20,224 nucleotides of DNA, taken from Pseudomonadota bacterium (GTDB lineage Bacteria; Bdellovibrionota; FAC87; UBA2466). Below are positions 2,648 through 15,585 of the stretch, piece after piece. The stretch is taken from positions 1-20,224 of the forward strand of contig JAYUGC010000192.1 in NCBI GenBank assembly GCA_043767805.1, given 5' to 3'. The notes below the pieces were generated by a model. The model made no database searches. It was not told the DNA's origin and worked only from the letters and a program-made list of their open reading frames with translations. How positions within the stretch are numbered: the stretch's first letter is position 1; each line of letters begins with the position of its first letter. The position numbers and the translations under genes were made by a program.

Positions 2648-3898
2648 TCAGTTCTTCAGGGCGTCCCGGAGCTCCTCGTTTTCGAGAATTTCTTCGGTAA
2701 GGGTACCGTCGGGATCGCCATGCTGACGGATGTGTTCGCGAAGCTTTACGTTTTCTTGATCGAAGAAGTTGTTAACCGCCGGGCTACCACCCGGGCGTTC
2801 GTGATATTTCTGCAGGATCTTCTTTGAAGTCTCTGGCTCGGTGATCTTTTTCAGAAGGCTCGTCGCCTCTTCCTGAGCGATGCGGCGGTCGGACGAAAGC
2901 AGGAAAGTAGTGGCCTTCACCACGCCAAAGGAAGCACTCGCGATGGCCATGCCGAAATAGATATTTCGCAAAGTGGAAGCGCCATAATTAAAGCTGGCGC
3001 GGCTTCCAAAGGTGGACCAAAGATGCTGGCGAAGCCCACCCGGCTGTTCTTTCTCCGCCAGCCAGAGATCGCGTCCCTGAGCGGTCAGGTGGTATCTCTT
3101 CAGCGGATCATAGGTGGGCCAGGCTAGCAGGAAGGGAAATCGCAAGCCGGCTTTCCACCACTGAAACTTCGGAATGGTATCGGCTGGTAAAACAAGGGGC
3201 TCTTCGAAGTGCTGATTCCACTCGTGAACGAAGGCGTAATCTCTCTTGGCCGAATTCTCGACCACATCGATGACCTGTTTCGGATAAGAAGCGTTGCTAC
3301 TGCCGAAAGGGAGACTTCGAATCGGGGAGCGTTGCCGGAGCTCCGCGACTTCAGCCTCGCGTACGGCTTTGGCTAGGAAAAGGAGATTGTCCCTGACTTC
3401 GCTCATGGCTTTTGGAGCCTTGTGAGGAAAGTAAAGGGCGAGCCGAGTGGGACTTCGCCGAAAAACCCCTCCCCATTTGAGAGTAGCACCTGGCGCACGT
3501 GCCCAGGGCCAGAGAAATTTCTTACCAACCGTTTCCACCGATTGGGAATCACGCAGCTGCTTCAAGGCTTCGCTCAAAAGCGGGCCTTCCCCTTGAATGG
3601 CATCGAAGAGCGCGACCTGGCTCTCGAGAGAGGGATGCTCCTTGATCGCTTTGAGAATCGCCACATCTCTCTCGGCGCCCGAGGAAGCGCTCAAAGTCAG
3701 CTTCCATCGGGCCAAGGCTTCCGCCGAAGCGTCAAAATCGAAAGCTATTTTAGCGGGAGGGGCGGAAACGTTTTGTTTGGTGGGCGCCGAGCCGGCGAGC
3801 TGGCGAGCGGCAGGCGCGCACTCAGGAAGACCGCCGGAATACGCAAAAGGCGCACCAAAAAGGAGGAAGAAGAATAGAATTAGGCTTCTACTTTTCAT
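2648..3898 (-). CDS. Secreted or membrane-associated hypothetical protein, 416 aa
   Basis: Start moved from 3958 to ATG 3898. That gives the signal peptide MKSRSLILFFFLLFGAPFAYS and an 11-bp overlap with the upstream gene, whose stop is at 3888-3890. There is a hydrophobic segment NIYFGMAIASASFGVVKATTFLL in the C-terminal third and a single Cys (ECAPAARQL). Confidence 0.8.
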   Translation of the reverse strand: MKSRSLILFFFLLFGAPFAYSGGLPECAPAARQLAGSAPTKQNVSAPPAKIAFDFDASAEALARWKLTLSASSGAERDVAILKAIKEHPSLESQVALFDAIQGEGPLLSEALKQLRDSQSVETVGKKFLWPWARAPGATLKWGGVFRRSPTRLALYFPHKAPKAMSEVRDNLLFLAKAVREAEVAELRQRSPIRSLPFGSSNASYPKQVIDVVENSAKRDYAFVHEWNQHFEEPLVLPADTIPKFQWWKAGLRFPFLLAWPTYDPLKRYHLTAQGRDLWLAEKEQPGGLRQHLWSTFGSRASFNYGASTLRNIYFGMAIASASFGVVKATTFLLSSDRRIAQEEATSLLKKITEPETSKKILQKYHERPGGSPAVNNFFDQENVKLREHIRQHGDPDGTLTEEILENEELRDALKN

Positions 3899-4931
3899 CG
3901 GTTTCAGCGCCGCCGATATCGTACAGGGGTTTGAACCAAAGAAGTTCGGTTTGGGCATTTAACGTAGTGGCTTCGCCCACCGAAATGCCGAAAGGCTCGT
4001 AAACGTAAATGTCCGAGCCGAGATAAGGAACGTACTCGTAGCCTTTGGGCCCGGTCCAGGCGAGATGGCTCCCGCTTCCGATGCGCTTATGCATGGAGCC
4101 CATCCAAGTCCCGCCGTTTTTGGAGAGGGTGGTCGTCGTGGGCAGCGGAATTTCGACCGCCCATCCCTGGTACAGACCTTCGAGATCGCTCATTTTAACT
4201 TTCTTGAAGTTTGAGTGATCGCTAACGAGAAACTCACTTCCGCCGAAGGAAAATTCGAGTTTTCCCTTTTCCTTCTTCTCAATTTGTCCGCCCATGAAAA
4301 TACTAAGCACCGCTTCCGTTTTCATGGCCTTGCCGTCGGTGACATCCATCCGATGACCGAAGGTCAAGCAGAGACGCCCTTTGAGTCCGGCAGTGACCCA
4401 TTTGATTCGTAGCAGACCGACTTCGGCTCCAATAAAACAAACGTTATAAGCAGCCACCAGAAGCTTGGTCCCCTTTTCGAAGCCAAAATCTTCCGGTTTC
4501 TTTTCCAATTTCTTATGGGCTTTGGCGGCCTCCATCACTTTCGTTCTTTTGTCCGCAATGAGCTTGAGAGCCTTTTCCTTGTCCTCGGAGTCCGGGCGCG
4601 CCTTGATCTCCGCTTCCTGGTCGTCGAAGAAGGCAATGACGTCACGATACAGTCCAAGAGCCTCACCCGGGACGAACTCGACCTCATGCTTCAACTTGGG
4701 ATCGACGACTTCCGGCACTTCGCCTTTTGCCCCATTGAGCCCGTTTTCACTCGGCGCGAGGCCCGTGCGGTCGCCCCCGGGAGCCGCCTTAGCCTCTTCA
4801 TGAGATTTACCGGTAGCCACCGGGCTGACAGGCTGGCCACGCTCAGAGCCCCCTTTGGGGCCGTCCTGCGCCTGCAGGGTGCTGGCGGCGAGGCAGAGTA
4901 GGCACAAGATATGAAGTTTTGAGCGTGTCAT
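3888..4931 (-). CDS. Secreted hypothetical protein, 347 aa; low-complexity N-terminus and beta-rich C-terminal domain
   Basis: Start moved from 5054 to ATG 4931, which has an RBS-like AGGGG just upstream and gives the signal peptide MTRSKLHILCLLCLAASTLQA. The C-terminal half has alternating Gly/hydrophobic strands and two Cys. Confidence 0.8.
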   Translation of the reverse strand: MTRSKLHILCLLCLAASTLQAQDGPKGGSERGQPVSPVATGKSHEEAKAAPGGDRTGLAPSENGLNGAKGEVPEVVDPKLKHEVEFVPGEALGLYRDVIAFFDDQEAEIKARPDSEDKEKALKLIADKRTKVMEAAKAHKKLEKKPEDFGFEKGTKLLVAAYNVCFIGAEVGLLRIKWVTAGLKGRLCLTFGHRMDVTDGKAMKTEAVLSIFMGGQIEKKEKGKLEFSFGGSEFLVSDHSNFKKVKMSDLEGLYQGWAVEIPLPTTTTLSKNGGTWMGSMHKRIGSGSHLAWTGPKGYEYVPYLGSDIYVYEPFGISVGEATTLNAQTELLWFKPLYDIGGAETDEK

Positions 4932-4981
4932 GAGTCCCCTATCGTCCATTCCCGAGCTTTGGTTTGATCTCCGTAAATTGT

Positions 4982-4997
4982 TGCAAATTGCGTTCCC
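4982..4997 (-). promoter_or_regulatory. Putative sigma-54 (RpoN) -24/-12 promoter for the 347-aa/416-aa gene pair
   Basis: The minus strand reads GGGAACGCAATTTGCA, i.e. GG-N10-GC with TTGCA, close to the consensus TGGCACG-N4-TTGCW. It lies about 50 bp upstream of ATG 4931. Confidence 0.6.
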
Positions 4998-5183
4998 TGC
5001 TACCCGAAACGGCGTAGGCACGGCTTTCTTCGCGCACGCATCGAATACAGGCATCGGCTCTGTCCAAGTAGCAACAAGATGTCCACTAATGGAATTATTT
5101 CGAGGGTCCAGGCGGACGAGGTTTCTCGATCTTATTGGTTATGACGACGATAAGGATGGGATTATCGACGATTAAAGAGCGCG

Positions 5184-5211
5184 CGAGGAGGCACCGGCGG
5201 TGCCTCTCTCG
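5184..5211 (-). terminator. GC-rich hairpin downstream of the 594-aa gene; possible terminator or mRNA 3'-end stabiliser
   Basis: CGAG-GAGGCACC-ggc-GGTGCCTC-t-CTCG forms an 8-bp perfect stem extended by 4 bp past a bulge. It lies 25 bp after the stop at 5237. The U-tract on the minus strand is weak (CGCGCTCTTTAA). Confidence 0.45.
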
Positions 5212-5236
5212 ACTGGAGATAGGCGAATTTCAGAAA

Positions 5237-7021
5237 CTATTTCTTGGGACGAGTCCCACGAATGTCCGAAAGGACTCGGCCAAAACGAGCGAGGATTTCC
5301 ACTTCCCCGTCCGTGGAGCGAATGTCTTTGACCGTCTGAGTGACGGCTTGAAGCTCCGCTTCGGTGAGGTCCATCCGGAGAGCCGTATCGAAAACTTCCC
5401 GGATCTCCTTCAGTTTCTCTTCCCGCGTCACTCTGGTGAAATGCCGGTTGATCACCGAATCTCTCAACCGCTGCAATTCCTTCGTCGCGTCGTGCGGAGC
5501 CGCCTTCACAGCGGGTGCTTCTTCCTTTTCCGCGACAGTCTCGGTTTTGAGCTTAGGAAGCGGCACTTCCTCCTCCACGTAGGAGACGGGCACTTTGGTA
5601 TCAATAGCGGTAAGGGTCATTCTCCCCGCTCTCGAGCGGTCCACAGTCAGCACTAGCGCGAGATGTTCTCCCGTCGGCAGTACCGCCATCGTCATATAAT
5701 GCTGCTTCGCAAAGCCGGTGGTGGGTTTTCCGCCGTAGACTTCTCGGGCGATCTCCCTAATTTTTTCCATCGGACCAGGCAACTCCGGCTTCGTTTGACC
5801 GCCCTCACTTTTAACTATTTTGGTAAAGTTCCGGGCAACGAGCGTTCCCCCAAACTTCTTGCAGGCGGCGGCTCCCACAAAACCACCAGCCGCCAGGCCT
5901 GCGGCGAATTCAACGCCGGTAGCCCCGTATCGAGATAGCCCTAGATACTTCTCCCCTTTGCGCCGGAGCTCATCATGAGAAAAGACGCCTTTGAACTCAT
6001 AGGCGTCAGGATGTTCGTTCTTCTCTCTGCGAAATGCCGAAAATTCGTTATTTAAAGTCGTCTGATTGACGTGGCCGGGCTCCCGGTAAGCCAGCTGCCT
6101 TTCCCATCTCGTGACGGCCTCCATGCTGAGGGAGTACTCGCTCTCGCTTTCGCGGCGTGCGATGTTCGAAGGAGCATAAGCGATATCTCTAGCGCCGAAC
6201 CGAGGCGTATTTCCCACCTTCGCTTGAGCTTCAAAAAAATTTCTCTCCGCAGTCATCGCGGACTCGATTTGCTGATCCGTAACCGTGCCCTTGGACTTCA
6301 GATCGTTTAAAACACCGCGGTAGAGCTCGAGATGCTTATCCACCGTTCCCGCGACGGATTGACCGGCTTCCTTGAGAATGGCGCGGTCGACTGTCGCCTC
6401 TCTGTTTCCTATCATTTCCACGGCACCTACTCCAGCCGCGAGACCAAGTGTGCCACCGGCGCCCAGCACACAGGTGAGAAAACCGCTCTGTTTGAGTTTC
6501 GAATCGTATTTAATCTTCGTAAGGACTTCCATCGTCTCCAAAAGGCTTTTGATGACTTCGTGATCCGAGGTCGAAAAGTATCCGGCGTCGCGCAGCCCAT
6601 TGCCCTCTTTTTCCAGGCTCTTTCGGACGGCCCCGACACGCTGCTTCAGAACGGTGTAATCCTCTTCGGACAATCCGCCTCTGGTCGCGGACCGATCGCC
6701 AATTTCATAGGAGGCTAAAAGCCCATGGTCGTCCTTCGCGGACACCGGCGGACGCTCGCCGCTCAATTGACCCGTTCGTTCGGCCGCAAGAGAGGATTGC
6801 ATGTCGCTCTCGATGGCATCCTCCAGGAGCTGGAGGTGGGCAATCGCATTCGCCCCGGCGGAGGCTCGCTCCTCAGGGCTCAATCCATCGACCCCACGCT
6901 TTATAAGATCCGACATCGCAAACGCGCACACACTACTCATGTGCTTACCGTCATCCGCGAAAAGAAGACGGCTTGGCATCACTAGCGTAGCGATAAGATA
7001 GGCTAGCAAAAGAGCGCGCAT
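5237..7021 (-). CDS. Secreted hypothetical protein, 594 aa, with two Gly-rich hydrophobic helices; paralog of 10772-13042
   Basis: The ATG is 3 bp after the stop of the AAA+ gene, with RBS GGAGG. Signal peptide MRALLLAYLIATLVMPSRLLFA. Gly-zipper-like segments FLTCVLGAGGTLGLAAGVGAV and GVEFAAGLAAGGFVGAAAC. Collinear similarity to the 756-aa protein. Confidence 0.85.
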   Translation of the reverse strand: MRALLLAYLIATLVMPSRLLFADDGKHMSSVCAFAMSDLIKRGVDGLSPEERASAGANAIAHLQLLEDAIESDMQSSLAAERTGQLSGERPPVSAKDDHGLLASYEIGDRSATRGGLSEEDYTVLKQRVGAVRKSLEKEGNGLRDAGYFSTSDHEVIKSLLETMEVLTKIKYDSKLKQSGFLTCVLGAGGTLGLAAGVGAVEMIGNREATVDRAILKEAGQSVAGTVDKHLELYRGVLNDLKSKGTVTDQQIESAMTAERNFFEAQAKVGNTPRFGARDIAYAPSNIARRESESEYSLSMEAVTRWERQLAYREPGHVNQTTLNNEFSAFRREKNEHPDAYEFKGVFSHDELRRKGEKYLGLSRYGATGVEFAAGLAAGGFVGAAACKKFGGTLVARNFTKIVKSEGGQTKPELPGPMEKIREIAREVYGGKPTTGFAKQHYMTMAVLPTGEHLALVLTVDRSRAGRMTLTAIDTKVPVSYVEEEVPLPKLKTETVAEKEEAPAVKAAPHDATKELQRLRDSVINRHFTRVTREEKLKEIREVFDTALRMDLTEAELQAVTQTVKDIRSTDGEVEILARFGRVLSDIRGTRPKK

Positions 7022-7024
7022 GGT

Positions 7025-10000
7025 CTATTTCCCTCCGATGCCGATTTTGGGAATTAGATCCGACGCCCGGACGGGATGCCACTCCACGCCTTTTCTCGCG
7101 CTCAAGGGGATGTCTCTATCCAAGATCCGGCGCAACGGGGTCGAACAACCTCCCCATCGAACTAAATTGGTAAGGACTCCCGGCCGAAGGCTCTCATAAA
7201 GGTCATCGTACTTGGCCGGATTACGAACCAAGCTGGCGAAAAGCATTAACATGTTCCGCCGCCCGATTTTTTGCAGCGAAGGAAAGAGGTTGACGACGTA
7301 CTCATCGAGATTCTTTTTGGCCTCGTAATCATTCTTGAGCCACAAATACAGCATGCCTAAATTGTACCCTTTGCGCGGAGTCGCCCTGTTGACGGCTTCC
7401 ATTATCTCGTCGCGAATCGAATCTCTCATTTGCGGATCTACATTCCTATAAAACTCCGCAAAGTCGCTGGTAGGGTCTCCCGCGGGAAGTTTTTTCACGA
7501 ACTCGTGAAATTGATCGAGCTGAGTTGCTCTGGCTTCCGTGGCTTTCGCCGCCAGGAGGTTTCTCTCGCCTTGAGTGCTCTCGAAAGCCAATTTCTTTTC
7601 CAGCTCCGCTTTGTCGACCTTGGCCTTTGCGTCCGCCTTCCTTTGCTCATCCAGTTCTTTCAGAGTCGCGGGAACCGCTTCCGCGGCGTAAAGGGACGGG
7701 TTCTCGGCGGCCCAAACATAGGATCGTTTGTCGGGATACTCCGCTTCCGCCTGGAGATCCTTGGAAGGCCTAAAATGATGGAGATACCCTGGGCCGATAA
7801 CCTTTTTACTCGTATATTTTCCCCAGTTTTCGGCGGTCGCCGCCCCACGAAGGATCTTGCCGCCCTCCTGCGTATACTCGGGATGCATCGTCCTCAGTTT
7901 GAGAACGTTATTATCTCCGTCCAATTTTTCATTGATGATACCGATATTCATCATGATGGGAGTACTCGGGTTTTTAGCCCGTTCGGTATCCACGTAAAGG
8001 TTAAGCTGGGTAAGCAAGTCGCCCATCACTTGCCTTACGTGTTCGATGACGACGTTGGGTCCCAATTCCGCGCTGTCCCCTTCCCGGACGAACAAGGCGG
8101 GAACATTTTCATGAATGAAGAGGTCGCCGCTGAATTTGACTCCCTCGCTTATCTTCTTGCTCTTCCAATCCTCGTACAAATTCTTCATCGTGGTCGTTGC
8201 ATGATTTAAGAGAAGCGGAGCCCTGGCGGGACCAATAAAGACAGGCCCCCGCGCTCCCTCGAGTCTTCTTCGGGTAGAGCCTTGAGGTCCATGGGCCGCC
8301 GTTTCACTAATCAAGGGCCTAAAGAGGTCCGGGAAATGCTCGCTGAACATTTCGGCAGGCCAGGACGCAAATTCGGGTCTTCTTAAGAGCTCGTCGTACC
8401 AGTCAGCATACTCATTCCAGCCTACCTTGCGCCCACTCGCGAGAACGTTGGCAACCCGCTGCTTAATTTCCTGCTCTAACTTGAGCACATTGGTGGTCCA
8501 CACTACCAGCATGTTGCCGAAGAATTTGCCGTTGGTCGTAACTGAGAAATTCGTCACGGCCTTTCGCACGATTTCTCGGGCGGCCGTGGGATTCATCGCC
8601 AGCATCTGGGCGAACTGAATTTTTGAGTCCTTCGAGTTCTTGAGATGCTGGATCCAGTCTTCCGGATTATTTTTGAATCTTTCGAGGCGCTGCGCAAAGT
8701 CTTTTGAAAATTCGGCAAGTTTTCCGGCATCCAGCTCGTTATTGACGAAATCCTGGACCGCATGGATCGCCGCGGTGGTTTCCAGAGCATCATCAATCGA
8801 TCGTTCGTAGTCCTTTTCGAGCTTAATCAGTTCGGCGAGCAAGGCTTCCGTCTGCTTCATCTCATCCCGGTGAACCTGCTGTTCCTTTTTTCCCCACGCC
8901 TTTTTGGTCTCGACGCTGTCTTGTACGGCCTTCTTTTCCCTGACAATTCTTGGCTCGAGGTCGGCAAGGTCATGGTCCAGCTTGGTGATGTGCCCGGTGA
9001 GAGCGTCGGCCGCCATTTTCCGGAACGCATTGATACTCGCGTTCAAAGACGCTTCTTTTGCCTCGACATAGCCAACCGTGCCTCTTCGAGAGTGGCTGGG
9101 ATCCGAGGTGAGATCCTTCATCATTTGCTCAAAAAAATCAGGAAGCGTGGGAGAGCCGTTTCGTAGCCGGCGGATCTCATCTTTCTTCCCATGGGTCTCG
9201 GCCCAAAGCTCAATTTGTCTGGGGCTAGCGTCCTCAAAGTCCTCGAGAGTTTCTTTAAGAGTTTCCGCCTTTTTCAAGAGGCTCTTGATTTCCGCGTCAG
9301 AAGCACTCAACTTCGTTTCCGCCTCCTTGATTTTCTGCTGCAGCTCGGCAGCTTCCTTCAGGAGAGGATCGTGTTCATACTTCGCCTTGAACTTAGCTAG
9401 CCTTTGAAACGTATCTTCAATTTCTTTTTTGTGAGATTCAGCCATTTGCTGTTCCTCACCTTCTTCAAACGTGCCTCCAGAAAGGGCACTCCAAAGTTTT
9501 TTGGTGAAATTGTTTATTTTGTCGCGGGCGCGTCTGTCCGTCTCGTACTTTTCACGGCGCTTTGTCGCTAATTCTTCATAAGTTCGCTTGAGTCCCTCGG
9601 CATCTTTTGCCTCACCAAGGGCGAGAGCGGCTTGCCAGTCATTTACCGCCGTGGCGTACTCTCTAAGATGATCCCGGTACGCTTCATAATTGCCGCCAAA
9701 TTCGCTCTCATCCCGCTGAACCGGTTTTTCCTTGCCTCTCGGTTTCAGTCTCTTTTCCTGCACCGCGATCCACGTTTCTTTGAGGTGATCGAGGTCCCTA
9801 TTCAAATCTTTCTCGAGGTCTTTGGACGGGCGCGCGAAATGGGAAGCTTCATCAAACCCGATTACGGCTGAAGTATCCAGGAAAAGCTCAAAGCGCTTGG
9901 TGAAGGAAAGCTTGGGGCCATTGATGGCCTCTATTTCCTTGAGGTCTTTGCCGTATTCGTCGACGATCGTGAGGTTCATTTCCTTCGTCGCGGTTCCGTT

Positions 10001-10429
10001 TTGAATGCCTTTTCGATTCTTGCGGAGAAGGCCGAGCTCTTCTCGCCATTTGATGAAATCCTTGAGCATCGCCGATTTACCGCCACCGGTGATGCCGCCA
10101 ACTTGCAAAAAGTTCAGATCTTGCGTGATTTCCTCACGAGAGACCAAGTCGAAAAGCGGCTTCATGAAAAAATCGATTTCCTGGCGGATCGGCTCATTGA
10201 GAAGAGGAGACATGATGTAGTCTTCATGCCCTAGATATTTGTTTACCATTCGCCGTCTGAGCTCATTGACCTTGATGGTGATTTTGGCTTTGAGCTCCGA
10301 GTCCGCATCGATGGTGCTGGATTGATTGGAATCAGTCTTCGGCGGCTCCGCCCAAGCGGAGTGCGCCACGAGCAAGAACAGTAGCGTCGGCGCGACAAAT
10401 CGAAATTTTAGAGTCTGAGCTCCAAACAT
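7025..10429 (-). CDS. Signal-peptide-bearing AAA+ ATPase-like protein (ClpB/ClpA second-domain or torsin-like fold) with large helical/coiled-coil insertions, 1134 aa
   Basis: Signal peptide MFGAQTLKFRFVAPTLLFLLVAHSAWA. Walker A G112-ITGGGKS119 (10073-10096), Walker B VIGFDE (9848-9865), sensor-1-like NMLVVWTTN647 and Arg-finger-like STRRRL occur in the order seen in ClpB NBD2. Confidence 0.75.
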   Translation of the reverse strand: MFGAQTLKFRFVAPTLLFLLVAHSAWAEPPKTDSNQSSTIDADSELKAKITIKVNELRRRMVNKYLGHEDYIMSPLLNEPIRQEIDFFMKPLFDLVSREEITQDLNFLQVGGITGGGKSAMLKDFIKWREELGLLRKNRKGIQNGTATKEMNLTIVDEYGKDLKEIEAINGPKLSFTKRFELFLDTSAVIGFDEASHFARPSKDLEKDLNRDLDHLKETWIAVQEKRLKPRGKEKPVQRDESEFGGNYEAYRDHLREYATAVNDWQAALALGEAKDAEGLKRTYEELATKRREKYETDRRARDKINNFTKKLWSALSGGTFEEGEEQQMAESHKKEIEDTFQRLAKFKAKYEHDPLLKEAAELQQKIKEAETKLSASDAEIKSLLKKAETLKETLEDFEDASPRQIELWAETHGKKDEIRRLRNGSPTLPDFFEQMMKDLTSDPSHSRRGTVGYVEAKEASLNASINAFRKMAADALTGHITKLDHDLADLEPRIVREKKAVQDSVETKKAWGKKEQQVHRDEMKQTEALLAELIKLEKDYERSIDDALETTAAIHAVQDFVNNELDAGKLAEFSKDFAQRLERFKNNPEDWIQHLKNSKDSKIQFAQMLAMNPTAAREIVRKAVTNFSVTTNGKFFGNMLVVWTTNVLKLEQEIKQRVANVLASGRKVGWNEYADWYDELLRRPEFASWPAEMFSEHFPDLFRPLISETAAHGPQGSTRRRLEGARGPVFIGPARAPLLLNHATTTMKNLYEDWKSKKISEGVKFSGDLFIHENVPALFVREGDSAELGPNVVIEHVRQVMGDLLTQLNLYVDTERAKNPSTPIMMNIGIINEKLDGDNNVLKLRTMHPEYTQEGGKILRGAATAENWGKYTSKKVIGPGYLHHFRPSKDLQAEAEYPDKRSYVWAAENPSLYAAEAVPATLKELDEQRKADAKAKVDKAELEKKLAFESTQGERNLLAAKATEARATQLDQFHEFVKKLPAGDPTSDFAEFYRNVDPQMRDSIRDEIMEAVNRATPRKGYNLGMLYLWLKNDYEAKKNLDEYVVNLFPSLQKIGRRNMLMLFASLVRNPAKYDDLYESLRPGVLTNLVRWGGCSTPLRRILDRDIPLSARKGVEWHPVRASDLIPKIGIGGK

Positions 10430-10485
10430 GGAATAAGCCCCGGGAAAATATTCGTTTCAATTTAGTGCTTAGCGAAGAATGATTT

Positions 10486-10501
10486 TGCAAGGCTTGTGCC
10501 C
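10486..10501 (-). promoter_or_regulatory. Putative sigma-54 (RpoN) -24/-12 promoter for the AAA+/594-aa operon
   Basis: The minus strand reads GGGCACAAGCCTTGCA, i.e. GGCAC-N5-TTGCA, a near-consensus match. It lies about 57 bp upstream of ATG 10429 in an AT-rich 340-bp intergenic region. Confidence 0.7.
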
Positions 10502-10771
10502 ACCACCAGACCACAGCGTACGTGCCTGAACGGCTACGGGATTTCCGGGCCGTCCACCTCGGTGTGTACATTCTTTGACTAACAGAATACGAACAGGGTC
10601 GTGTTCTCGCGGTCTAACTCTTTGAAGTTTCATTTGTATTCACAGACTGTCCGGTTTTTGATCAGTCGTTTCTTTATGTAACCTACTGAAATTCAATGAA
10701 GAAAGCGTGGAGAAGGATCCGCGGACGTGGTTTTTTGGGGATCAGGAGCGTTTAAATTTTAGGAGAGTATT

Positions 10772-13042
10772 CTAGAACCCGCCGAACCCGCTGCCCCAGG
10801 GGAGGCTGTTGTTCTGGCGGCTGCGGCGCGGACCGTCGTAGAGGAACGCATAGAGGTCCGGCGGCAGACCGTCCCAGGAGGGACGAGGGAACTTAATCAT
10901 CGGACTCTCGCCCTCTTCCTCGCCCATGGTCCGAAAATAATGAGTCGCTTTTAGCGCGTCCCTCAAATAATTTTCGGCCCCTTCGAGACTCCATTCGTAC
11001 TCTTTTTCCATGATCGTTTCGCCGGCTTTTTCGAACGCAGCCAGCTCCATGGGACTCATATTCAGCTCGCGAGCGATGGCGAAATCCCGCCTTATCACGG
11101 CTTCGATTTCAGCGCGGGTCGCGAACTTTTGCGTTATCCAGCTCTCCACGTCGCCCTTGGTCAGGAGCTTTTTGGTGTCCAGCCGCTGCTCCATGCGATT
11201 GATCACGCGCTCGGGACTTCGGAAATCAGAGATAGTAGGAACATAGATCGATGAGGTGTCCTGAGGGTACTCGAACCGGCCTCGGCGCGCGTCCTCTTCT
11301 TTTTGCCTCTTGTCTCGCGCGTCCGCAAGACGCCGCCGTTCCTTTTTGATGTCGATGAGGGTATGCCGAAGCCATCTTAGCTCTTCATAGCTATGGATCT
11401 CGCCGACGGTTTTTGCCCATATTTTCAACTCCGCGGGCGTGAGCTTGAGACTGGTTGCCTCCGAAAAAGTTTGGTCAATGAGATCACTGGGCGCTTGAAA
11501 CTCTTCGCCGACGTGACTGGTGAAACGGTGAGTGATGAGCTTCCGTTTGAGGAGTCCCAATTCGACGTCCGCCGACACATGGGGCTCCGCCGGCGGGGGA
11601 TCGTAGTCCATAACGATTGGCTCCCCTTTGGGAACCGCGGGAGAAAAGCTTAGCCCGGTAAGTCTCACCTTGGGGATACGGCCGGTCCGATCAATTTCCA
11701 ATAGGAGCGTGGAATACGTTCCGTCGGGATTCTCGCTGTCGAGCCAAACCGTCTCTTTCGCGAAGCCGGGCTTTTCCCGCTCGACGGCGCGATCGACTAC
11801 CCCGGCAAGCGCGGTGTGGATCTTTTTCAAGGCGGGAGATACTTCGGTCGGCACTACTTTTTCAAAACCCGGCAACCCTATTCGTTCCGCAATCTGGGTG
11901 CACGATAAGGCCCCGGTCACTCCGCCCAGTAGGAGGGAAGGAACCGATAGATAAGTCGTCATTCGTTCGTAGTTCGCATGAGCGCTATCTGCACCCAAAC
12001 GTATGAGCTCGTCTTCGTTCAGGAGGCCATTTCTCTTGGGAGTGCCGTATTTATTGTAGTTCTCGTCGTTATGAGATTCGGCCAGCTCCTTTTTCATGTC
12101 CAATCTTCCGGGCGTCTCGGTCGTGGAGTAGGTGCTTACCGGTGCCCGGCTGTAAGCGGCCAGATCACGGGCCCTGTCCAAAAACTCAGCTTTCGACACG
12201 CCCTTCAGAGCCTCATAGTCGGTAAATCGATTGTGGTAAGCGAAGGGGCGCTTGTCTGCTTTTTCTTTGCCCACGACGCTAGCCGAGTACTCCTTAATCC
12301 ACTTCTCGCCGTCCGGCATCTCTTTGACGGCCAGCCGCAAGCGTTCCAGGTGACCTTTTTCATCCCGAACCGTCGTCGCCAAAACCTCCTTCTGGATTTC
12401 ATCCGCGGGCCTGGCATTGGGATTGTTGTAACGTCTAATTCCAGACATCAAGAAATAGCCCGCGCCGGCTGAGAGCGCGGTACACCATCGATTCCACTTG
12501 GTTCTATTTTGCTGGCGCTCATCCAGGTCTTTTGCGTTTCTTAGTCTTTCGCCTTTCTCAAAAAAATCTCGGATCGACTCAGGTGTTTCTTTCTCCAAGC
12601 TCGTCTCGAAAAACTTGAAATCGACCACTTGGGGACTCGAAGTATGCAACTGTTCGGCAAGTCTCGAAAGTCTAGCTCTTAGCCGATCGAAATCGCGCGT
12701 TTGCATCGCGTGGTCGGAACCCTCGTAGTCTCCCGTGTGATAGGTGACTTTCGAGCCCTCGGCTCCCTCCTCTAAAGGAGGAGCCCGCATTTGGCTGGAC
12801 GCACCCAGCGTAACATCCTGAGCCCCCAGCGTGGCCTTCTCCTCGGCGTTAATGAGGGACTCGAGGTGCTTCATGAATTGGTAGGCCGCAGGATAGTTGC
12901 TATGAGAAGGATCAGCGCGTTTCACGACCTTGGCCAGCGCGGCACAGCACTCTCCCACCGAACAAACTGCGGAATCACCAAGGGCAAGGGAGCCCATAGT
13001 GATGCCGAAAATCAGGAAGAATATGTTAAATGGCCGATTCAA
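10772..13042 (-). CDS. Secreted hypothetical protein, about 756 aa; paralog of 5237-7021 with a duplicated C-terminal helical domain
   Basis: Start moved from 13141 to TTG 13042, preceded by AGGGGGCAGGGGAGA. That gives the signal peptide (M)NRPFNIFFLIFGITMGSLALG. It shares collinear motifs with the 594-aa protein. The exact start is uncertain. Confidence 0.8.
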   Translation of the reverse strand: MNRPFNIFFLIFGITMGSLALGDSAVCSVGECCAALAKVVKRADPSHSNYPAAYQFMKHLESLINAEEKATLGAQDVTLGASSQMRAPPLEEGAEGSKVTYHTGDYEGSDHAMQTRDFDRLRARLSRLAEQLHTSSPQVVDFKFFETSLEKETPESIRDFFEKGERLRNAKDLDERQQNRTKWNRWCTALSAGAGYFLMSGIRRYNNPNARPADEIQKEVLATTVRDEKGHLERLRLAVKEMPDGEKWIKEYSASVVGKEKADKRPFAYHNRFTDYEALKGVSKAEFLDRARDLAAYSRAPVSTYSTTETPGRLDMKKELAESHNDENYNKYGTPKRNGLLNEDELIRLGADSAHANYERMTTYLSVPSLLLGGVTGALSCTQIAERIGLPGFEKVVPTEVSPALKKIHTALAGVVDRAVEREKPGFAKETVWLDSENPDGTYSTLLLEIDRTGRIPKVRLTGLSFSPAVPKGEPIVMDYDPPPAEPHVSADVELGLLKRKLITHRFTSHVGEEFQAPSDLIDQTFSEATSLKLTPAELKIWAKTVGEIHSYEELRWLRHTLIDIKKERRRLADARDKRQKEEDARRGRFEYPQDTSSIYVPTISDFRSPERVINRMEQRLDTKKLLTKGDVESWITQKFATRAEIEAVIRRDFAIARELNMSPMELAAFEKAGETIMEKEYEWSLEGAENYLRDALKATHYFRTMGEEEGESPMIKFPRPSWDGLPPDLYAFLYDGPRRSRQNNSLPWGSGFGGF

Positions 13043-13084
13043 TCTCCCCTGCCCCCTAAAAAAATCGAGTCCCCTGTATTCCCA

Positions 13085-13100
13085 TGCAAAACACAGGCTA
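13085..13100 (-). promoter_or_regulatory. Degenerate sigma-54-like element upstream of the 756-aa gene
   Basis: The minus strand reads TAGCCTGTGTTTTGCA. It has a good TTGCA -12 box at a similar distance from the start as the other two sites, but AG instead of the invariant GG at -24. Confidence 0.25.
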
Positions 13101-13222
13101 AGTTCCAGCCGGGATTTTTTCTCCGTATTCTGTTCGTCCACGCCCAGTCTTTGGACAGCCCGCCGATTCGAAAGCGTGCAAACTCACGATTTACGGGCGC
13201 TTTCCGCCGTTTGTCGCGACGC

Positions 13223-13257: not shown

Positions 13258-15585
13258 GTGCTTCCCCCACGCCAAAAGTCCGTGAAAAACACTCCCTGGT
13301 ACGGTGCAGCCAGCCTGCCTCCTTGGCGAGCCGCCGGGCTAACTTTGGCGTTCACCTCATTGTGGGTTCTGTTTTCCCTGACTCCGCTCGCGGAGTGGCT
13401 GAATTTACGCATCGAGACCCGACTCGATTTCCGCCTGCGCCAGATGGTCGGCCTCGCGCCGCGGCTCCACCCGAAGCTGAAGATTTTCGCGGTCGATCCG
13501 GCGGCACTCGCCGCGGGAGACTTGGAGTACGTTCCTTTTTCCCTCTGGACGTCTCTCTTGAAGAGTCTGGGAGAGATGAAACCGAAAGCGATCTTGGTGG
13601 ACAAGATCCACGCCCCGCGCACGACCGACGCCGCTCAGCTGAACCTCTTTCTTCGCGGCCCCCATCCCTACGGCGGAGTCACCTGGTCTGCGACCGAGCG
13701 AGAAGACTGGACTAGATTGCCTAATGACTGCTGCGGTTTTACGTCCGTCCTTGGCGCGACCAAAACGGGGACCACCCGCAAGGGGAGTTACCTCTATGGC
13801 CCAAGCCTTTCCCTGCTCCCGGGATTCAAACGGCTCGGGCACACCGGCTTTCGCAGCGACGGGTACCTCGATCTGGTTTTGCGGCAACCCGGGGATTTGC
13901 TCATCCCGCACTGGTCGGTTCAATTTGCGGAGCCCTTGGTTTGGAGCCACGGCCGAGTGCTTGCCGCCGGCAAGGAGATCCCGCGCGACCGAAAAGGCCG
14001 CTCCCTTCCCAACTATCCGAAACCTGAAGTGACGGCGAGTACCGTACATAGCCTTCTGCCGCTTTTGCAGCGGGTCTTGAAGCAAGAGCCTGTCACCGGC
14101 ATCGAGGAAGGCGACGTGGTCGTGATCATGAACCACGCCTCCGAAGGAGATTTACCGACGATAGAAAGCCCTGTCGGCACTATTCCCGCGTTCTACGCCT
14201 CGCTCGCGATGACCAACGATGTGCTCACGGGGAAGTTTCTCAAAACCGTATCCCTTCCCGAGCTCTGGATCGCGCTGGGTTGTTTTGTGGGCGCCTGGCT
14301 CGGCTTCGTCTACTCGGCGGCGCCCCTGACGTCTTATATGATCTCGGCGCTCGGCCTCATTTCACTGGCGGGGCTACTCGCCTTCGCTTTCGCCGGCACT
14401 TTATTTCCGTGGCTACTCACCGCGAGCGGCTGCGGGCTTTGTGGCACTCTCGTCTTTCTCGAGAAAACCCGTCAGCAAGGCAGACTGCTTCGCAAGGTGC
14501 GGGGATCGCTGGAGGGCTGCCTTCCGAAGCCGGTGCTGGAAAGCATTCTGGAGAATCCAGCGACGCTCGATCTGACGCCCTCGACGCAAATCATTACCGT
14601 GATGTGCGTCGACATCCTGGGTTTTTCATTAAACGCCGAGCGCGAGTCGCCCCAAGGCGCGTTTCGCGTGCTTCGCCAAAGCATGGAAATTCTCACTCCC
14701 ATCCTCCACCGACACGGGGGCATTCTCGACCGCACGACGGGCGACGGTATCATCTGCTTTTTCGGCTACCGTTACGGCGAAGGCGGGAAGGTCGACTTGA
14801 ATCACGCCGAGTCGGCCGTCCGCTGCGCCCTCGAAATGCAACGGAGCCTGCTCGCCCAAAATGGGCGCAACTTCGCCCTAGGCTACGCGGTTTATCCGCT
14901 TCGCATCGGCGTGCATACCGATCGCGTCCACGTGGGCGACGCGGGCGCCACCGACCGTATCGAGATCGCGGTTTTAGGCAGCGGCGTGAACTTCGCCCAA
15001 AAGCTCAAGGCGGCGTGCGAGCCCTATCGGGTTCAGATTAGCTCCAGCACCCGCGACAGATTGCACGGTCTGTCGACGGAAATGCCGGGGCTTCACCAAA
15101 AATTCGTGCCGGCCGGGGATCGGGACGAGCTTTTCGACGCCTTCGAGATCAATCCGTTCTTCGAGGCGCCCGTGAAATTAGAGAGCTCTCTCGACCATTA
15201 TCGAAAAGGCGCCGAGCTGACCCGCCTGGAAGCGCGCTGGCCCATCGATTCGGTGGGCTGGATCTTTGCGGAATGCCAGTGGGGAAAAGGCGATGTCATC
15301 AACTTCTCCCGAGGGGGGCTCGCCCTTCGCCTTCCGCAATACTACGGGCTCGGCGTGACGTTTAATCTGAAGCTCAACTCCGGCAACGGAAAGCTGGCCG
15401 AAGCATGCCGCGAAATTGGCCTCCCGGTCCTTGCCGCCGAAGTCCGCTGGGGAAAGCCCGATCCGTCGGGTTACCTACACGGCATCGCTTTCAAGAATCT
15501 TTCCGTCGAGCAGAAGGAAAAGCTTTTCGAAGCCATCCACTCGCTCCACCTCACCCAGCCCGTTGCGAAAACGCATGCCGCCTAA
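13258..15585 (+). CDS. Membrane protein: N-terminal TM, CHASE2-like sensor, about 3 TM helices, class III adenylate/guanylate cyclase domain (non-canonical), C-terminal PilZ domain
   Basis: CHASE2-like motifs KPKAILVD, DVVVI and ESPVG..N.L.G.FL. Hydrophobic helices at about aa 335-400. Cyclase motifs ITVMCVDILGFS, GGILDRTTGDG and LRIGVHT...GSGVNFAQKL. PilZ motifs R656-LEA-R660 and N682-FSRGG. The start could instead be GTG 13282. Confidence 0.85.
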   Translation: MLPPRQKSVKNTPWYGAASLPPWRAAGLTLAFTSLWVLFSLTPLAEWLNLRIETRLDFRLRQMVGLAPRLHPKLKIFAVDPAALAAGDLEYVPFSLWTSLLKSLGEMKPKAILVDKIHAPRTTDAAQLNLFLRGPHPYGGVTWSATEREDWTRLPNDCCGFTSVLGATKTGTTRKGSYLYGPSLSLLPGFKRLGHTGFRSDGYLDLVLRQPGDLLIPHWSVQFAEPLVWSHGRVLAAGKEIPRDRKGRSLPNYPKPEVTASTVHSLLPLLQRVLKQEPVTGIEEGDVVVIMNHASEGDLPTIESPVGTIPAFYASLAMTNDVLTGKFLKTVSLPELWIALGCFVGAWLGFVYSAAPLTSYMISALGLISLAGLLAFAFAGTLFPWLLTASGCGLCGTLVFLEKTRQQGRLLRKVRGSLEGCLPKPVLESILENPATLDLTPSTQIITVMCVDILGFSLNAERESPQGAFRVLRQSMEILTPILHRHGGILDRTTGDGIICFFGYRYGEGGKVDLNHAESAVRCALEMQRSLLAQNGRNFALGYAVYPLRIGVHTDRVHVGDAGATDRIEIAVLGSGVNFAQKLKAACEPYRVQISSSTRDRLHGLSTEMPGLHQKFVPAGDRDELFDAFEINPFFEAPVKLESSLDHYRKGAELTRLEARWPIDSVGWIFAECQWGKGDVINFSRGGLALRLPQYYGLGVTFNLKLNSGNGKLAEACREIGLPVLAAEVRWGKPDPSGYLHGIAFKNLSVEQKEKLFEAIHSLHLTQPVAKTHAA

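Follow-up and report, generated by a model that had tools for sequence, protein, structure and literature searches.

Contig JAYUGC010000192.1, whose entire 20,224 bp we refer to as the window, belongs to a 4.5-Mb draft genome and carries on its minus strand an open reading frame (ORF) for a protein of 1134 amino acids, P0001 (7025..10429; single copy in the genome). On balance, and with modest confidence, we conclude from its sequence that P0001 is a Sec-exported, split nucleoside triphosphatase (NTPase) of the AAA+ type that acts outside the cytoplasm of its producer. It would be a soluble exported protein built around a highly divergent P-loop NTPase core of the AAA+ type (Clp/HslU/FtsH kind). 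The domain appears to be divided: residues 50-200 would contain helix 0 and strand 1 as well as Walker A and B, the strand with the sensor-1 Asn probably follows some 440 residues later (636-647), and about 400 residues of charged helical and coiled-coil inserts separate the two halves. After sensor 1, the protein would continue with an RRRL-G-x2-G-x2-F-x2-P block that is specific to the family, then a probable lid, and would end in a C-terminal extension of 300 residues. A first-pass annotation of the window had described this ORF as an AAA+ ATPase similar to torsins and to the second nucleotide-binding domain (NBD2) of Clp proteins, located behind an export signal. All strings quoted there are present in P0001 and collinear in the order given: ELRRRMVNKYLGHED (residues ~55-69), GITGGGKS (112-119), SAVIGFDE (187-194), WSALSGG (313-319), FFGNMLVVWTTN (636-647), STRRRL (718-723) and AELGPN (787-792).

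The N-terminal half of the AAA+-like core (residues 50-200; 9830..10282, on the minus strand as are all P0001 segments below) would comprise helix 0, strand 1, the P-loop and strands 2 and 3, as indicated by profile alignments, a proteome screen and shuffled controls. Residues 50-215 were aligned by hhalign with a small set of home-made reference alignments, built from relatives of the genome. Against ClpB NBD2, a probability of 86.7% (P 4.4e-6) was obtained over 116 columns, from the helix preceding strand 1 to Walker B; the probability was 91.3% (110 columns) when 69 diverse ClpB sequences were used, and 82.6% (P 9.7e-6, 121 columns) with a second hhalign implementation. The real score of 49.3 was reached by none of 50 column shuffles (14.8+-2.5). 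ClpA NBD2 was matched at 82.3% over 97 columns, FtsH at 93.8% over 48 columns, ClpX at 90.3% over the P-loop helix only and ClpB NBD1 at 43.7%. MoxR (0.3%), sigma-54 activators (4.6%) and DEAD helicases (1.8%) were not supported as relatives. The full alignment from helix 0 to Walker B (97-121 columns) was found for ClpB and ClpA NBD2 only, and the non-AAA+ matches were mostly to the P-loop.

We also screened the 392 six-frame ORFs of the genome that are at least 150 amino acids long and contain [AG]xxxxGK[ST]. The top non-self matches were FtsH, ClpB NBD2 (121 columns), a second FtsH, and ClpX tied with CysNC; ArsA, ABC proteins and a helicase came next. In a profile search of PDB, HslU accounted for 7/9 of the matches listed, at an E-value of about 0.4, which is not significant. 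Sub-threshold matches to Pfam AAA-clan models spanned Walker A to Walker B in 5/9 N-terminal pieces, the best being AAA_5 in the piece of one relative (6e-4; 20.2 bits versus a cut-off of 22), and P0001 itself had AAA_22 at E 0.14 alone. AAA_2 and ClpB_D2-small were not listed for P0001 and 14 members at E<=10, and the window contig was absent among the matches listed in a genome-wide AAA_2 search (73 further rows). These data support the presence in P0001 of an AAA+-type P-loop NTPase core, with Clp/Hsp100 NBD2 as the best long match; the Walker A and B motifs suggested in the first-pass annotation are present, and its Clp-NBD2-like N-terminal half is supported beyond chance (hhalign P 1e-6 to 1e-5).

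P0001 belongs to a small orphan family. An exhaustive HMMER search of 1.84 billion representatives detected 15 proteins at E<=1e-3, self included, with 11 at <=1e-10 and 6 at <=1e-30. All ten members that were looked up are singleton clusters, 'hypothetical' or nameless. The family occurs in 3/401 sampled genomes of the phylum, which belong to a single taxonomic family; a fourth weak genome match (G017, three stops) was regarded as spurious because tblastn did not reproduce it. Pfam, NCBIfam, PADLOC and a PDB sequence search recognized nothing in P0001, word-indexed homolog searches returned the query alone, and the ESM Atlas provided no usable match. No relatives were detected in plasmids, phages, viral contigs, or genome-contig and metagenome-contig collections, and a hidden Markov model search of the six-frame ORFs found no significant paralog in the genome. 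PDB phmmer and full-length profile searches yielded only coiled-coil noise, including YaxA at E 0.014. The ClpB of this genome is closest (73%) to ClpB of an uncultured Pseudobdellovibrionaceae metagenome-assembled genome, which agrees with a Bdellovibrio-like producer of P0001.

The family alignment contains 14 sequences, with 9 members being N-complete and P0015 being a partial record. The most conserved 15-residue windows were the RRL..P block (0.67), Walker A (0.66), Walker B (0.64) and WxAxSGG (0.62), and G112, K118, E194, H197, W313, N647, R721, R722, G725, G728 and P734 were identical in all nine covering sequences. Walker A (GITGGGKS, residues 112-119; 10073..10096), in which G112 and K118 are invariant, has the form GxxxxGK[ST] and follows a hydrophobic strand (LNFLQVGGITGGGKS). 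The hhhhDE pattern of Walker B (h, hydrophobic) occurs as AVIGFDE; together with a conserved His it forms VIGFDEASH (residues 189-197; 9839..9865), with E194 and H197 conserved in 9/9 and D193 in 8/9 sequences. In P0014, a metagenome member, Met precedes the Lys of Walker A (GPSATMKT), and the hydrophobic N-terminus is followed by a Lys-rich stretch; this protein may be a degenerate member or one of different topology.

Two inserts flank the WSALSGG family motif (residues 313-319; 9473..9493), whose W313, A315 and G319 are present in 9/9 sequences. Insert 1 (residues 201-302; 9524..9829) is 45% charged, helix-favoring and variable in length. Insert 2 (residues 327-621; 8567..9451) is a long helical or coiled-coil region, with a Pfam Tropomyosin match (E 0.004) at 350-421 and profile matches to coiled-coil PDB chains inside 350-565. 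Both are poor in Pro and Gly and their matches are of a weak coiled-coil type only. P0001 has one Cys.

The putative strand 4 with the sensor-1 Asn, FFGNMLVVWTTN (residues 636-647; 8489..8524), lies beyond the inserts, and its N647 is conserved in 9/9 sequences. A 41-residue piece around it had its best local match on the sensor-1 strand of ClpB-D2, ClpA-D2, Lon and an AAA_5 protein, that is, in 4/5 templates with at least 9 aligned columns. Its score of 18.9 was reached by none of 80 shuffles (11.7+-2.3). When four conserved blocks were joined in all 24 orders and compared with ClpB, the natural order scored 48.4 versus 42.8 for the other 23; with a merged Clp profile, about 6 bits were gained in every order, and only in those orders, that placed the sensor-1 block after the N-terminal half. 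These shuffle and order tests support VVWTTN with N647 as sensor 1, the strand itself being predicted, and with it the correspondence proposed in the first-pass annotation. Downstream of it, the most conserved block of the family, STRRRLEGARGPVFIGP (residues 718-734; 8228..8278; R721, R722, G725, G728 and P734 in 9/9), is a candidate for the Arg finger and strand 5. It is followed by a candidate helical lid (residues 735-830; 7940..8227), which holds the putative sensor-2 segment AELGPN, and by the C-terminal extension (residues 831-1134; 7028..7939), a module of which (RDSIRDEI ... LYLWLKND) is present in some members only. About four of the seven Clp correspondences originally proposed are supported, and the other three can be described as alignment-compatible.

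The predicted Sec-type signal peptide occupies residues 1-27 (..AHSAWA|EPP; 10349..10429). It contains K8 and R10, a 12-residue uncharged core, FVAPTLLFLLVA, and A-W-A before the predicted cut, and the mature N-terminus is acidic. By inspection, P0001 has the positive n-region, the 7-15-residue core, the small residues at -1 and -3 and the conservation that characterize Sec signals. An N-terminal uncharged run of 11-20 residues was present in 8/9 N-complete members, which are 20-45% identical, and the hydrophobic core is 12-16 residues long among them; the export signal proposed in the first-pass annotation is thus supported by its conservation. No other 19-residue window of the 1134 amino acids reaches a hydropathy of 1.5. 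The charges of P0001, positive before the core and acidic after it, predict an N-in/C-out topology. The bulk of the protein, with the ATPase, would therefore lie outside the cytoplasm even if the signal were an uncleaved anchor, the alternative that the first-pass annotation had offered.

In the mechanism that we propose for P0001, the separated pieces would fold into one sheet of the ASCE (additional strand, catalytic glutamate) type. Because K118, E194, N647 and R721/R722 are invariant, we infer that the protein binds and hydrolyzes NTP. It might do so within the envelope or, once released, at or inside the prey of a Bdellovibrio-like producer, driven by prey nucleotide or leaked ATP, and the long coiled coils may serve as arms or spacers that couple the nucleotide state to a target. 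Action in an ATP-containing compartment of another cell, which had been suggested for this protein, would fit such a producer.

Several observations weigh against an active, exported AAA+ enzyme. Residues 600-830 had no significant match to any reference profile, and in the 392-ORF screen they yielded nothing AAA+-specific, their top matches not being AAA+ proteins. Taking the WxAxSGG block as helix 3 (FTKKLWSALSGG aligned with FNILLQVLDDG), as in the first-pass annotation, added no score; it is possible, with low confidence, that helix 3 instead follows Walker B directly, with H197 matching the His of the Clp 'KAH'. The block proposed to hold the Arg finger and sensor 2 (residues 690-830) scored 12.0 against the Clp region after sensor 1, which equals its shuffles (12.3+-2.8), and the alignment of AELGPN to YGARP (P 0.24) gave nothing above shuffles, with no Arg conserved there. 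The assignments of STRRRL as Arg finger and of a sensor 2 with GAR replaced by GPN are conjecture at present. Neither P0001 nor any relative reached the threshold of a curated model. In addition, P0008 has no signal at all, and the 19-residue hydropathy cut-off of 1.5 was reached at the N-terminus by 6/9 members, with the core of P0001 falling short. The neighbors of homologs in two other genomes are unrelated, no neighbors being common to the three genomic family loci; therefore there is no conserved operon and no hint of a partner or pathway. AAA+ motors normally remain inside the cell, where ATP is. The periplasm contains no ATP according to PMC7391070, which speaks against the proposed activity and would suit an exported pseudo-ATPase or scaffold. 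Such a protein would either never bind nucleotide or bind it a single time at most, for instance while or before it folds, and could be the oligomerization hub of a long coiled-coil envelope or surface structure, so that external ATP would not be needed. In line with this, the Gly before the Walker A Lys is replaced in 6/9 members (Ala in 5/9, Met in 1/9) and D193 is Glu in 1/9, and because these positions vary some family members may be impaired; the Arg finger and sensor 2 are unrecognizable by similarity, and about 400 residues are coiled-coil-like. However, K118, E194, N647 and R721/R722, identical in 9/9 covering sequences, are hard to explain without catalysis, and active AAA+ enzymes such as MCM and MoxR tolerate Ala before the P-loop Lys. 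We consider the pseudo-ATPase unlikely.

Less probable still, in our opinion, is an origin of the P-loop NTPase core outside AAA+, in a different ASCE or kinase-GTPase lineage, in which case the distal sensor-1 match would be fortuitous; candidates are STAND/AAA_16-like, ABC/SMC-like (coiled coil plus 'LSGG') and kinase-like P-loop proteins. The sub-threshold Pfam matches included AAA_22, AAA_16, PRK and Zeta_toxin, the top 10 of the proteome screen contained CysNC/APS kinase, ArsA and ABC ATPases, no AAA+ signal came from the C-terminal half, and an SGG motif with a long coiled coil resembles SMC-type ABC ATPases. Against this, only ClpB and ClpA NBD2 aligned from helix 0 to Walker B, the sensor-1 strand is backed by shuffles and order dependence, and DEAD helicases had a probability of only 1.8%. 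An SMC/ABC-type ATPase was rejected: in these proteins a coiled coil or Q-loop comes after Walker A and is followed in turn by the signature LSGGQ, Walker B and the H-loop, whereas P0001 has Walker A, Walker B, SGG and then the coiled coil, and the ABC matches were limited to the P-loop or lower than those to AAA+ proteins. Finally, P0001 would be cytoplasmic, with ATP at hand, if its start were mis-called or if an N-out anchor kept the ATPase on the cytoplasmic side. In-frame TTG and GTG codons at positions 19 and 21, the absence of a hydrophobic N-terminus in P0008 and the Lys-rich stretch after the hydrophobic core of P0014 are compatible with this. Nevertheless, the ATG is the first start of the frame, only 9 codons past the upstream stop, the hydrophobic N-terminus is kept in 8/9 members despite their divergence, the charges are arranged for export, and a core of 12-16 residues is too short for a typical membrane anchor. 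We regard a cytoplasmic location as very improbable.

AAA+ proteins are described in general in 10.1101/567099. Among the systems with which the exported, split NTPase can be compared, ClpB and ClpA NBD2 (AAA_2 plus ClpB_D2-small) gave its longest profile alignment, and P0001 shares with them an 'L..RVIGQ'-like helix 0, GP(S/T)G.(G/A)K(T/S), the spacing to hhhhDE followed by His, and an F.N..hhh.(T/S)(T/S)N sensor-1 strand. It differs from them in staying below the AAA_2 and D2-small thresholds, in the ~400 residues inserted between Walker B and sensor 1 and in the lack of a detectable GAR sensor 2 and Clp-type Arg finger; it is also single-tier, with a signal peptide and a 300-residue C-terminal extension. 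HslU, the top group of the PDB profile search, is a cytoplasmic Clp-family AAA+ protein with a protease partner, whose large domain has a big inserted domain between Walker A and B, whereas the inserts of P0001 come after Walker B. The AAA module of FtsH had the best P-value for the residues leading up to and spanning Walker A, but the match ends after the P-loop helix, and P0001 has neither an M41 peptidase nor two transmembrane helices.

Torsins are AAA+ proteins of the eukaryotic endoplasmic reticulum (ER) lumen, and the sole analogy to them is a Clp-NBD2-like, single-tier AAA+ domain behind a signal sequence, away from the bulk ATP pool. Torsin Walker A ends in K-N, whereas that of P0001 ends in K-S/T, and a GCK-type sensor 2 could not be aligned. 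The Torsin Pfam model (PF06309) had no match on the window contig at E<=1, the best in the genome being ClpA (19.2 bits versus a cut-off of 27); P0001 was therefore rejected as a member of the Torsin family, and the torsin kinship raised in the first-pass annotation did not hold up. A precedent for a signal-bearing, ATP-dependent enzyme is Lig E, whose fold and chemistry are unrelated to those of P0001. It is described as a nucleotide-dependent enzyme that always has a periplasmic signal peptide, and its supply of ATP in the periplasm or outside is an open question to its authors (10.64898/2026.03.22.713542). Within the library searched, no paper mentioned a periplasmic, secreted, exported, extracytoplasmic or extracellular AAA+ or a periplasmic P-loop in exactly these wordings.

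P0001 is one of five orphan genes that run on the same strand (2648-13141). Not one of the five matched a Pfam or NCBIfam model, and signal-like N-termini occur in all of them. Downstream, P0002 (5237..7021, minus strand; 594 amino acids) begins 3 nt past the P0001 stop and has a signal-like N-terminus and an internal hydrophobic segment; it is a paralog of the upstream gene product P0003 (10772..13141, minus strand; 789 amino acids), with 23% identity over 621 columns (E 5e-13). Glycine/alanine-rich hydrophobic segments occur in each, and the pair flanking P0001 is present only in the window genome among the four genomes searched. P0005 (2648-3958, minus strand), which has two paralogs on contigs C90 and C87, and P0004 (3888-5054, minus strand) overlap by 71 nt as called; both have long leaders N-terminal to a hydrophobic segment, and translation of both probably begins further downstream. 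The idea of LAP1-like activator partners was abandoned because no AAA-like signal was present in P0002, P0003, P0004, P0005 or an 855-amino-acid ORF at 67-2634 on the plus strand, which has no Pfam or PADLOC match.

The genes to the right of the orphan block are ordinary and code for a CHASE2-cyclase-PilZ protein, Dus, epimerases and an ABC-2 permease. The first of these (13258-15585, plus strand) combines a CHASE2 sensor (24.3 bits, below the cut-off of 26.3), an adenylate/guanylate cyclase domain and a C-terminal PilZ domain. The orphan block is low in G+C, at 53.7% overall versus 57.9+-1.8% for the genome, and P0001 (51.5%) is at the 0.6th percentile of the 3.4-kb windows of the genome; this could reflect a foreign origin or merely Lys/Glu-rich coding. 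There was no sign of a tRNA, an integrase or a flanking repeat around the block. Rfam, tRNA and repeat scans of the window revealed nothing notable, and a promoter and terminator scan was not above shuffles. No RNA sequencing runs containing the stretch were listed; three sediment-metagenome DNA runs from one study, one of them possibly the source, contain it.

Signal-like N-termini in front of Clp-type domains were also detected in related genomes. Three giant proteins of 1434-1551 amino acids (L192:1962-6266, plus strand, genome G005; L193:2154-6809, minus strand, G004; and L194:1157-5770, plus strand, G003) have signal-like N-termini, three AAA tiers (AAA_16, AAA_2 and AAA) and a C-terminal Peptidase_M41. 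Their last tiers exceed the Torsin cut-off of 27 bits, with 33.3, 28.8 and 27.8 bits, respectively; such a match occurred in 0/14 control genomes and was absent from the window genome. Four further proteins of 867-1015 amino acids with signal-like N-termini (L190:3669-6272, plus; L191:3238-5880, minus; L191:6656-9703, minus; and L195:491-3109, plus) contain bona fide AAA_2, and the L195 protein additionally AAA and ClpB_D2-small. These proteins resemble P0001 in coming from the same bacterial group and in the signal-like N-terminus before a Clp-type domain; unlike P0001 they are recognized by Pfam and multi-tier, and some end in the M41 peptidase. Orthologs of the relatives' proteins are absent from the window genome, and a special kinship with P0001 was rejected, as they are no closer to it than housekeeping ClpB. 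Exported Clp-type ATPases thus seem to recur in this Bdellovibrio-like group.

In Gram-negative bacteria, energy-dependent work beyond the inner membrane is thought to require coupling either to the proton motive force or to ATP in the cytoplasm, since ATP is absent from the periplasm, as stated in PMC7391070. P0001 appears to be exported, yet every catalytic AAA+ residue that could be checked is kept, which would either challenge this picture or point to the cytoplasm of another cell. Its family would also illustrate how heavily inserts can divide an AAA+ core that nevertheless stays conserved. Proteins of this type are invisible to routine annotation because no curated model detects them. 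It is a tentative idea, and on the doubtful side in our estimate, that P0001 is a functional AAA+ motor which a predatory Bdellovibrio-like bacterium sends out through Sec to work beyond its own cytoplasm, at or inside its prey, fueled by prey nucleotide. If this were true, the P0001 family, together with the signal-bearing, multi-tier Clp/torsin-like ATPases of its relatives, would form a repertoire of extracytoplasmic AAA+ machines that has so far gone undescribed, comparable in bacteria to the situation of torsins in the eukaryotic ER lumen.

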